From Octopus vulgaris (Eukaryota): a DNA stretch of 64,000 bases. Each line of letters starts with the position of its first letter. Positions within the stretch are counted from its first letter, which is position 1. The notes under the pieces were generated by a model. It saw nothing but the letters and a program-made list of their open reading frames with translations. It was not told where the DNA came from and searched no databases. Shown here in pieces: positions 9,857 to 64,000 of this stretch. A program made the translations under genes and the position numbers. The stretch lies in the NCBI GenBank assembly GCA_951406725.2, contig OX597826.1:58280001-58344000 (forward strand), written 5' to 3'.

Positions 9857-10040
9857 TTGTGCCCCATCATCGGCTTGACAACCGATGTTGGTGTGTTTAC
9901 GTCTCCGTAAAAAAAGCCCGACGGAATAAGTACTAGGCTTACAAAGAATAGGTCCTAGAGTCGATTTCTTCGACTAAAACCCTTTAAGGCGGTGCTCCAA
10001 CATAGCAGCAGTCTAATAAATGAAGCAAGTAAAAGAATAA
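9657..10040 (+). mobile_element. SINE family A copy
   Basis: ggcgcaggcgtgg...gggttcagtcccacagcgcagcaacttgggcaagtgtcttctactatagcc...aaggcggtgctccaacatagcagcagtc. Confidence 0.85.
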
Positions 10041-25159: not shown

Positions 25160-25710
25160 CATTTAACACATTATCAACACGTTATTATCACATTTAATAC
25201 CATTATGAACACATTATCACAAGGAATACCCATTATTAATACAATATCACATTAAGCACAATTATCAATACATTATCACTTTTCACATTATTATCAATTC
25301 ATTATTATCCAATTTAATGCTATAATCTAGACATCACATTTAAGAGCATTATTTACACCGTAAAATTATCAACATTTTCAATAGATTATTATCACATTTA
25401 ATAACATTATTTAAACATTATCACATTTAACTCTATTCGCAATACAATATTACATTTGATACAATTCTCAATACATTATTATCACATTTAACACCATTAT
25501 CTACACAATAAAATTAGCATCATAACCTATACATTATCACATTCAACACCATTATCAACATATCACATTTCATTTCGTTTAACATCATTATCTACATATT
25601 ATCACACTTAATACCTTAATCAATACGTTATCACATTTAACAATGTTATCAATACATTATTAAATTTAACATTATTATCTGTGCATTATCATACTAACAA
25701 CACTTAACAA
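25160..25710. repeat. Degenerate AT-rich minisatellite (~27-30-bp unit, ACATTATCACATTTAAyACCATTATCAAT-like)
   Basis: attatcacattta and cattatcaa recur throughout. Confidence 0.75.
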
Positions 25711-61535: not shown

Positions 61536-61544
61536 CTTTGCATA

Positions 61545-62213
61545 CGAGGGGCGTTCAATAAGTAATGCCCCTGACCCACTTCCCATAGCAGTAGAGCAAC
61601 GAAACTTGGCACAGTTATTAGTCTTTTTCTACATAGGAACCACCCAGAGTTAAGCATTTCTCCCATCGTTGATGCAGCTCTGGAGACCGTTTTTATAGAA
61701 GACCCCAGCTTGGTCCTCCAACCACGACGTGACTTAAGAAATCAAGGCTGCATCATCTTGGAAACGCTTTCCTTTCAACAACAACTTCATGGCTGGGAAG
61801 AGGTGAAAATCAGAGAGTGTAAGGTCAGGAGAGTAGGGGAGATGGGGGAGGAGCTCATAGCCGCACGCCTATGCTTCTGATCTGGCTACACGCGAGTTGT
61901 GGACCGGAGCGTTGTCCTGCAGGAGGAGGATGCATTTGCTGATCTTGCCCCGCTTCTTGATTTTGATAGCTTCTCTTAATTTCCTCAAAAGTGAAGCATA
62001 ATAGGCTCCTGTAATTGTTGTACCATTGCCAGGAAATCTGTCATCACTACTCCGTCCTGGTCCCAGAAGACTGTGAGCATGACTTTGCCAGGGGAGGGCT
62101 GCACCCTTGCCTTCTTTGGAGGAGGTGAGTCACAGTGCTTCCACTGTATTGACTCGACTTTGGTCTCTGGATCATAGTGATGGACACAGGTTTCATCCTG
62201 TCTAATCAGTCTT
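61545..62213 (-). mobile_element. Mariner (DDD) transposon, 3' half with disrupted transposase
   Basis: TA|CGAGGGGCGTTCAATAAGTAATGC TIR at 61545. Minus strand: RLIRQDETCVHHYDPETKVESIQWKH..PPPKKARVQPSPGKVMLTVFWDQDGVV, LLLQDNAPVHNS, HLPYSPDLTLSDFHLFP, GSYVEKD* (stop 61618-61620), with frameshifts and stops. Confidence 0.92.
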
Positions 62214-62221
62214 TGATCTCT

Positions 62222-62375
62222 GTCGTGAGGTTATATGACGTTGCGTTAAATGACGTGAAAGGATGTGACGTGGGATGGCCTGAAATGACGTGACGTTAAA
62301 TAACGAGGCATGACGTGCCGTTGAACAACGTGACGGGAAGCTACGTTAAATGACGTTAAATGTTGTTAAATGACA
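62222..62375. repeat. Short degenerate array of TGACGT motifs
   Basis: atgacgttgcgttaaatgacgtg...aaatgacgtgacgttaaa...catgacgtgcc...aaatgacgttaaat. Confidence 0.75.
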
Positions 62376-62377
62376 GT

Positions 62378-64000
62378 CTTGACATTCCTGACATTCCAGA
62401 TATTCCAGACATTCCTGATATTCCAGACATTACAGACATTCCTGACATTACTGACATTCCAGACATTCCAGACATTCCTGACATTACTGACATTCCAGAC
62501 AGAGATCAAAGACGGTACCGAGAGAGATCGAAGAGGGTGCCGACATAGATCAAAGAGGATGCATACAGAGATCAAAGAGGGTAACGAAAGAGATCAAAGA
62601 CGGTGCCGACAGAGATCAAAGAAGGTGCCGACAGAGATCAAAGAGGGTGCCGAAAGAGATCAGAGAGGGTCCCGAAAGAGATCAAAGAGGTAGCGTAAAG
62701 ACATCAAAGAGGGTGTCGACAAAGATCAAAGAGGGTGCCGAAAGGGATCAAACAGGGTGCCGAAAGGGATCAAAGAGGTAGCCGAAAGAGATCAGATACG
62801 GTGCCGACAGAGATCAAAGACAGTGCCGACAGAGATCAAAGATGGTGCCCAAAAGAGATCAAAGAGGGTGGTGAAAGAGATCAAAGACGGTGCCGACAGA
62901 GATCAAAGACGGTGTCGAAAAGAGAGCAAAGAGGGTGGCGAAAGAGATCAAAGACGGTGCCGAGAGAAATCAAAGACGGTGCCGAAAGAGATCAAAGACG
63001 GTGTCGACAGAGATCAAAGAGGGAGTCGACAGAGATCAAAGAGGGTGCTGACAGAGATCAAAGAAGGAGCCGAAAGAGATCAAAGAGGGTACCGAAAAGA
63101 GACCAATATGGTGCCGACAGAGATCAAAGACGGTGCCAACAGAGATGAAAGAGAGTGCCGAAAGAGATCAAAGAGGGTGCCGACAGAGATCAAAGACATT
63201 CCAGACATTCCTGACATTCCAGACATTCCTGACATTCACTGACATTACTAACATTCCAGACATTCCAGACATTCCTGATATTCCAGACATTCCAGACATT
63301 CCTGACATTACTGACATTCGAGACATTCCTGACATTCCTGACATTCTTGACATTCCAGACATTCCAGACATTCCAGATATTCCTGACATTACTGAATTTC
63401 CAGACATTCCTACAAAGAATGGGCCGACAGAGATGAAAGACGGTGCCGACAGAGATCAAAGAGGGTGCCGACGGAGATGAAAGACGGAGCCAAAAGTGAT
63501 CAAAGACGGTGTCGACATAGATTAAAGAAGGAGCCGAAAGAGATCAAAGATGGTGCCGAAAGAGACCAAAGAGGGTGACGAAAAGAGATCAAAGAGGGTG
63601 TCGAAAGAGATCAAAAAGGGTGTCGACAGAGATCAAAGAGGGTGCAAACCGAGATCAAATACATTCCTGAAATTCCTGACATTTCAGACATTCCTGACAT
63701 TACTGACATTCCAGAACAAGGGGAGGAAGGAATGTTGAACATTCCAGAGTGGGGGATTCAGAGGTGAAGGGGAGGAAGTGGAGGAAGGAATGTTGAACAT
63801 TCCTGAGAGGGGGATTTGAGAGGTGAAGGGGAGGAAGGGGAGGAGGGAATGTTGAACATTCCAGAGAGGGAGAGGAATGAATTTTGAACATTCCAGAGAG
63901 GGGGATTTGACAGGTGAAGGGGAGGAAGGGGAGGAAGGAATGTTGAACATTCCAGAGAGAGGGATTTGAGAGTTGAAGGGAGGAAGGGGAGGAAAAATCG
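62378..64000. repeat. Composite satellite: alternating blocks of 9-bp GACATTCC(A/T) and 22-bp AGAGATCAAAGA(C/G)GGTGCCGA(C/A), then a ~55-bp unit
   Basis: 9-bp blocks ~62378-62500, 63194-63410, 63660-63715. 22-bp blocks ~62498-63195, 63420-63660. ~55-bp unit ggaggaaggaatgttgaacattccagagagggggatttgagaggtgaagggga from ~63720 to the window end. Confidence 0.92.

Follow-up and report, generated by a model that had tools for sequence, protein, structure and literature searches.

A dispersed patchwork satellite whose repeat units match transcription factor sites in the Octopus vulgaris genome

Introduction

In molluscs, satellites are found inside non-autonomous Helentron and MITE elements, where they form dispersed short arrays. 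Human Satellite 3 (HSat3) is a single pentamer family arranged in megabase blocks, whose tandem unit spells the TEAD core, and this satellite is a dense array of factor sites for which binding has been shown (PMC11526998). In Drosophila, the unrelated Rsp-like and 1.688 satellites abut each other at recurring microhomology junctions with occasional flank duplication, and template switching or circles have been proposed for them; they are two long-unit families on one chromosome, with no factor-site theme in the available text (PMC7403614). Targeted telomere insertion through NR2C/F in ALT cells joins interstitial telomere runs to inserted DNA, and the repeat-bound factor has been proposed as a tether to distant sites, in a process described for somatic cells, one factor family, and one cell line (PMC7073516, PMC6410037). 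Bipartite TCF sites, composed of an HMG site and a helper site, and their TOPFLASH multimers represent a further point of comparison (PMC4154663).

The window analyzed here, a 64,000-nucleotide stretch of Octopus vulgaris DNA (contig OX597826.1, positions 58,280,001 to 58,344,000), contains at its right end the beginning of a tandem array that shares features with each of these systems. As in HSat3, a factor core site lies inside the tandem unit; in contrast to HSat3, there are about 20 unrelated units with different candidate sites at many loci, in patchworks of 0.3 to >80 kb, and megabase arrays of one simple unit were not seen (9.7 kb here, and at least 80 kb for the largest block). As in the fly satellites, unrelated units abut, but the families that do so number 17, in 32 pairings on both strands that include the telomere repeat, and they occupy 20 contigs and bypass 11. 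Interstitial telomere runs are joined to array units at four sites, as in targeted telomere insertion, whereas the present arrays are inherited and consist of many units, and tethering would be reflected only indirectly, in a chromosome restriction. Some arrays lie inside other elements and moved with them, like the mollusc satellites, but termini common to the whole family are absent. A description of this repeat family was not found in the open-access literature, and the available part of PMC13652810 does not mention satellites.

Results

The array spans approximately 9.7 kb, from window position 62209 to position 9905 of the downstream stretch L021, with the first 1.8 kb inside the window and about 7.9 kb beyond it. 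Its blocks follow in the order A, B, C, B, C, B, D, and then a closing B and a short inverted B. It opens with a 17-bp stub of the 22-bp TCF unit on the minus strand (62209..62225, located by alignment and seen again at L021:210-226), which places its beginning 8-13 bp before position 62222, the start given in the original prediction. The blocks that follow in the window read on the plus strand. Block A (62224..62375) is a degenerate 5/10/15-bp repeat of the CRE half site, with all seven of the TGACGT copies of 62222-64000 located within 62236-62356, compared with 15 in the remaining 62.2 kb of the window; the full CRE palindrome has no copy in 62222-64000. The exact irregular stretch of this block was found again at five other sites, with 77-87% identity. 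Blocks B1 (62378..62497), B2 (63195..63411), and B3 (63661..63715) are made of the 9-bp TEAD-type unit GACATTCC(A/T), and CATTCC-nnn-CATTCC occurs 12 times in 62222-64000 versus never in the remaining 62.2 kb. Blocks C1 (62498..63194) and C2 (63423..63660) are made of the 22-bp unit, which combines a TCF HMG site with a GCCG helper-like word; AGATCAAAG is present in 26 copies in 62222-64000 against a single copy in the remaining 62.2 kb, and GCCGA in 21 copies in 62222-64000. Block D, of which 63716..64000 falls in the window, is formed by a purine-rich unit of 59 bp that includes an inverted TEAD-type pair, GGAATGTTGAACATTCC, found four times in 62222-64000 and not at all in the remaining 62.2 kb. 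It runs about 7.6 kb past the window end with four strand reversals, and a strand flip falls inside its own palindrome; the array then closes beside a SINE-like piece.

These counts agree with the prediction of repeated TGACGT in the first block, of arrays of CATTCC pairs from the 9-bp unit, and of about 25 TCF-site copies together with GCCGA in the 22-bp unit. The unit predicted at about 55 bp does contain the inverted pair, but its period is 59 bp. Two further expectations had to be revised. The 9-bp and 59-bp units have in common the 10 bases ACATTCCAGA, seen directly in the sequence, so their TEAD matches are not independent, and the four motif matches, each of which had been taken as independent, amount to three. 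Likewise, the period of the 22-bp unit is not fixed, given that 9% of the units have a spacer longer by one inserted base. A coding reading of the array was rejected: its open frames (DIP repeats and others) arise because the units lack stops, a period of 22 bp is not divisible by three, and blocks change strand.

The array is inserted in a mariner element of the 2.8-Gb assembly. The 3' half of this element, with one terminal inverted repeat and a broken transposase, occupies 61543..62213 on the minus strand (Pfam Transposase_1, E values of 9e-12 and 1e-5) and is 93-95% identical to four full 1.29-kb copies. The array cuts the element, whose remaining ~610 bp is absent at the locus; no further mariner piece was found in the downstream stretches L021 and L022, so DNA was deleted or rearranged at the insertion, which postdates the mariner. 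Alignment with the intact mariner copies (4/4) defines the left junction as a 5-bp microhomology, TCTTT (62209..62213), which the mariner shares with the 22-bp unit read on its minus strand, and there is no target duplication at this insertion. The start of an LTR or other element at 62222 was considered and rejected, as the terminus is not shared and the junction lies inside the mariner. None of the 69 window open reading frames scanned (of 84 listed) matched a Pfam domain, in a scan that would miss short exons, so that an intronic position is possible. No link between this copy and a gene emerged.

A 32-base pattern of the array has 1,358 exact copies in the genome, whereas its backward control has none, and arrays were located at 130 distinct listed sites, these being the best-scoring subsets of 55-303 candidates per search. 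The original prediction of a mobile or satellite-borne sequence, which had called for copy number and transposable element association, therefore finds its answer in a mobile, dispersed satellite, of which the present copy sits inside a mariner. The array is natural, not a construct. It has the look of multimerized TCF, TEAD, and CRE reporters, but a synthetic reporter or contamination has virtually no likelihood: the genome-wide copies already refute it, the units are degenerate rather than identical, and the mariner and SINE-like flanks are native. Array words recur in DNA runs from another study of this organism (shares of 0.33 and 0.28) and from a second organism (0.20). No plasmid record covers the stretch (the best single match has 12% coverage at 67% identity), no viral contig contains the 22-bp unit, and the array departs from a synthetic reporter, in which identical sites at a single locus would accompany a vector, a minimal promoter, and a reporter gene. 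The listed runs that contain array words, with small-share rows set aside, include no RNA run.

Comparison of 58 stretches revealed no terminus common to the array ends, as a DNA transposon or Helentron would have. Six small groups share a flank, each of a different element, because the array sits inside another element or a duplicated segment; we take these carriers to be Tigger-like, Helentron-like, or Penelope-like elements, or a duplicated segment. Three further sites share a junction in a 67-bp repeat. In the flanks of L038 and L082, both on C18, one element, presumably a Tigger-like non-autonomous one, contains at an identical internal position patchworks that differ between the sites. 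Target-site duplications were not found in 27 complete arrays, where the longest shared word near the junctions has 2-8 bases, and the flank duplications among them are one direct, of 290 bp, and one inverted, of at least 580 bp (97% identity). The latter, at L072:2736-5365, places an array between inverted copies of host DNA and has the appearance of a fold-back or sister-fusion scar. An autonomous carrier nearby was rejected, since 76 open reading frames (74 of the 162 in the flanks and two mariner frames) show no constant domain; they contain a mixture of LINE reverse transcriptase, Tc1/mariner, LTR, and Pif1 pieces. At seven loci, Rfam retrieved nothing at the gathering score.

The four units of the window are a subset of a pool of 20 repeat families tied to the 22-bp unit through adjacency. 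The units first noted are thus real, but the larger pool, with many more pathways, had been missed. Junctions of two families are present at 52 of 106 sites and comprise 32 pairings among 17 families, those involving an AT-rich 21-bp unit being noisier. Another 63 stretches yielded just three abutting unit types not seen before, which suggests that the pool is finite. In 40 fixed random 10-kb stretches, TRF detected 20 short arrays and no pool array except a 45-bp telomere run; TRF was preferred here to a word scan, which flagged 13 of the 40, all but the telomere run through AT-rich microsatellite words. Unrelated satellites therefore abut one another above chance. Besides the units of the window, the pool includes what we take to be two MEF2-type units, a Grainyhead-type 10-mer, an octamer 21-mer, a 22-mer with NRF1 and E2F sites, a 73-mer with kB, STAT, and ETS sites, and a 27-mer with an ONECUT-type word; other members are a 34-mer and the telomere repeat. 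Unit lengths range from 6 to 85 bp, and the patchworks, on 20 contigs, from 0.3 to >80 kb. A single linear master element was rejected because adjacency is many-to-many, but some pairs keep their orientation (33 versus 10 for B/C, and 14 versus 1 for the 34-bp and 73-bp units). Telomere runs of 0.5-1.7 kb are joined to the 22-bp unit at four interstitial sites (L030:2099-7694, L074, L075, and L081), co-oriented with it in all four.

The largest block, of at least 80 kb, lies at the start of contig C18, with its far end beyond the stretch viewed. This contig opens (L171-L179, C18:1-90000) with the 22-bp NRF1/E2F-like repeat, followed by at least 80 kb of MEF2-like and octamer units; the telomere repeat was not seen at this end. 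Several repeats were observed near pool arrays. The 84-bp repeats at L093:9291-9974, L094:2468-2892, and L103:6155-6579, a few kilobases from long CRE-half-site arrays, resemble C2H2 zinc-finger arrays by eye. At L086:1-1537, about 1.1 kb from a 22-bp array, there is an array of a 5-bp repeat whose tandem form contains what is presumably a nuclear-receptor-like half site. In L047, a 65-bp piece of block A lies among 27-bp TATA/CArG-like and AT-rich 33-bp repeats, possibly more members of the pool. Within the window, 25165-25691 contains a degenerate 11/26/29-bp repeat rich in what we assume to be a GATA-like word, with no link to the pool in the stretches seen.

Junctions between units lie at short shared words, and several junction types are common to many, including distant, sites, as judged by eye and without a formal null for length. 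One junction is present in 24 exact copies at nine sites on seven contigs, which indicates that ready-made composites get recopied. The distribution among contigs is uneven. The 130 listed sites (best-scoring subsets) include none on C12, C19-C26, C29, and C30, where 5 of 39 mariner copies are located (p = 5e-4); the six measured contigs of this array-free set represent 13.5% of the genome, and four complete exact-match lists (29 site entries) also place none there. A diffusible transposon reaches these chromosomes and the arrays do not, which suggests copying from nearby templates. Within 5 Mb of a contig end lie 24 of the 130 listed sites, compared with 2 of 39 mariner copies (p = 0.045). 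Listed arrays are densest on C7, C18, C13, C9, C15, and C31. Two-armed arrays that present the same strand (AGATCAAAG/GACATTCC) first at both ends outnumber the others by 14 to 6 (p = 0.12), and by 9 to 2 after internal sub-blocks were removed by hand, a post hoc curation (p = 0.065). L043:989-1190 and L044:1048-1242, on two contigs, share a flank with a hammerhead-like core by a TA run that joins the 9-bp unit at the same base; Rfam called no hammerhead in this flank, and its fold z score is −0.6.

The matches between units and factor sites were evaluated with 24 consensus sites, in a list drawn up once the units were known and with three entries (CRE/ATF, kB, and ONECUT) phrased with the units in view. 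A listed site is present in 12 of the 20 linked units, whereas 2,000 shuffles gave a mean of 1.5 and a maximum of 6. The control repeats, mostly short low-copy arrays that are not size-matched, match in 2 of 45 cases (1 of 25 unlinked units at these loci and 1 of 20 units taken from the random stretches; Fisher p = 2e-6). The excess is retained when the units of the original prediction are excluded (7 of 15; p = 5e-4), and 9 of 17 units match when related ones are merged. Two or three distinct perfect sites occur within each of two units (shuffle p of 0.001-0.002), and 8 of the 20 match no listed site. Once the list had been fixed, 2 of 3 newly found units matched, which is weak evidence because the chances of a match in shuffles are 0.32-0.40 and 0.13. 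That the units match pathway motifs, as had been claimed, is thus upheld against both shuffles and control repeats.

Conservation of the sites relative to the spacers differs among the units. The comparison for the 22-bp unit comprised 4,283 of the 4,299 copies aligned from 38 stretches. Positions 2-10, the TCF core, are kept at 0.964 versus 0.878 elsewhere, the best of 22 rotations, although variants are shared between arrays by descent and the units are therefore not independent mutation events. None of the 15 recurrent variants (≥3%) falls within positions 4-10, and the 40 units of the window itself display the same trend (0.95 for the core and 0.85 for the rest). The unit agrees with the HMG consensus of PMC4154663 at 9 of 11 positions; of the four recurrent variants at the other two, three shift towards the consensus. 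The commonest form of the helper-like word matches the fly helper at 6 of 7 positions, with RCCG in 78% of the units, at a gap from the HMG site of 4 bp, or of 5 bp in the 9% with the insertion. Spacings of 4-5 bp are within the range that binds well, with the orientation inferred (PMC4154663). In contrast to TOPFLASH-type multimers, this unit is natural and degenerate, no minimal promoter or reporter accompanies it, and its helper word does not exceed the spacer in conservation (11 of 21 rotations do as well). Sites are also better kept than spacers in the 20-bp MEF2-type unit (0 of 19 rotations as good), the CRE unit (1 of 24), and the 9-bp unit (0 of 8), where the result depends on one dimorphic position. 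Four of 10 unit types thus pass, and six fail: the 59-bp (17 of 58 rotations as good), 73-bp (32 of 72), 34-bp (15 of 33), 13-bp (6 of 12), 21-bp (16 of 20), and NRF1/E2F-like 22-bp (7 of 21) units. Site constraint is real in some unit types but not general, and the check proposed originally holds for the TCF core but not for the GCCG helper or the TEAD pair of the 59-bp unit. Decay by methylation was rejected as a reading of the 22-bp unit, since its CpG is not depleted, which says nothing on function.

Discussion

The family is a real, natural factor-site satellite. We consider the array a copy of a dispersed patchwork satellite that repair writes from a pool of about 20 units, with factor binding favoring which units are copied, a reading to which we assign a probability of about one half. 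Its parts differ in strength. Spread through DNA template-switch repair, by microhomology-mediated break-induced replication or by re-insertion of circles, is probable: the microhomology at the junctions, the fold-back, the deletions, the flank duplications, and the absence of termini all fit it, whereas the strand bias of the two-armed arrays (14 versus 6) is unexpected under pure DNA switching. After a DNA break, in this case in the mariner, the repair polymerase would hop between existing arrays at short shared words. That TEAD, TCF, CREB/ATF, MEF2, and other factors bind the arrays and so favor them as repair templates is possible, judging from the motifs, though we would stop short of calling it probable. 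Both halves of this mechanism have precedents, in the binding of TEAD to HSat3 (PMC11526998) and in telomere insertion guided by nuclear receptors (PMC7073516, PMC6410037). Bound factors may keep arrays open or gather them in shared nuclear hubs, and arrays with good sites would then more often be on hand as a template during the repair of a nearby break. Selection of site-bearing units would operate at the level of the repeat, without benefit to the animal, and any action as an enhancer or sink at this locus would be incidental. A more doubtful extension makes the satellites a selfish population under selection for factor binding, whose members would meet in hubs, serve each other as repair templates, and spread as patchworks only among the chromosomes that visit these hubs. 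Candidate recruiters would be TEAD, TCF, CREB, MEF2, NF-kB/STAT/ETS, NRF1/E2F, Oct, and Grainyhead, and the outcome would be comparable to a SELEX that the genome performs on the germline factor set, with no need of a transposase, termini, or host benefit.

The strand bias would be explained if the arrays spread through RNA instead, their sites driving array transcription and a Penelope- or LINE-type reverse transcriptase copying the RNAs into breaks, so that better promoters would leave more copies. Such an enzyme would prime at both ends and jump between RNAs, and a purified Penelope-like enzyme does extend both target strands (PMC11167929). The polarity of the two-armed arrays is, however, not significant even after a curation that was post hoc, and the left end of the window array opens with a minus-strand stub. 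Given the co-orientation of telomere runs with the 22-bp unit, the sense of such a template would be that of TERRA (PMC6410037), and the hammerhead-like core shared by two sites lies on the same strand, but no hammerhead was called by Rfam. Poly(A) and target duplications were not found, and the duplicated host-DNA flanks and the chromosome restriction suit DNA copying better, which leaves the RNA route improbable. We give similarly little credence to neutral minisatellites spread by repair, with motifs that reflect chance and hindsight, or are relics of promoter fragments at birth, and have no present effect through binding. The fly satellites fuse and spread without a factor link in the available account (PMC7403614), and here the motif list is post hoc, 8 of 20 units match nothing, and 6 of 10 unit types show no constraint. 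Chance and hindsight are at odds with the excess of matches over control repeats and with the two units that have two or three perfect sites, and no other window of the TCF and MEF2 units is kept as well as their cores, with 0 of 21 and 0 of 19 rotations as good.

The same motif excess and the conserved TCF core would also fit arrays kept by selection as signal-responsive enhancers or factor sinks, which is the original reading and the HSat3 model. The HMG-helper spacing within the well-binding range and the binding of TEAD and YAP by HSat3 (PMC11526998) are in favor of this function. Motif constraint is absent in 6 of 10 unit types, array makeup and length vary at every site, and no coding domain was found in the 69 of 84 window open reading frames scanned, although short exons would escape. 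The present copy postdates a mariner that differs from its sister copies by only 5-7%, and it destroyed half of that mariner. A host-selected enhancer is unlikely here because the copy is young, lies inside a dead transposon, and differs in makeup from every other site; maintenance by the host is, overall, slightly less credible still than the two preceding explanations, and an enhancer role at this locus is unsupported.

The idea that protein binding selects which repeats turn into satellites becomes testable with patchworks in which about 20 unrelated units, mostly spelling conserved factor sites, travel jointly and bypass a set of chromosomes. Dense motif clusters in the Octopus vulgaris genome call for caution, as they are copies of a repeat and not evidence of enhancers. 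If the arrays are bound, each insertion would bring tens to hundreds of sites for Wnt, Hippo, immune, and muscle factors, and such insertions would be raw material for regulatory change and a possible factor sink.
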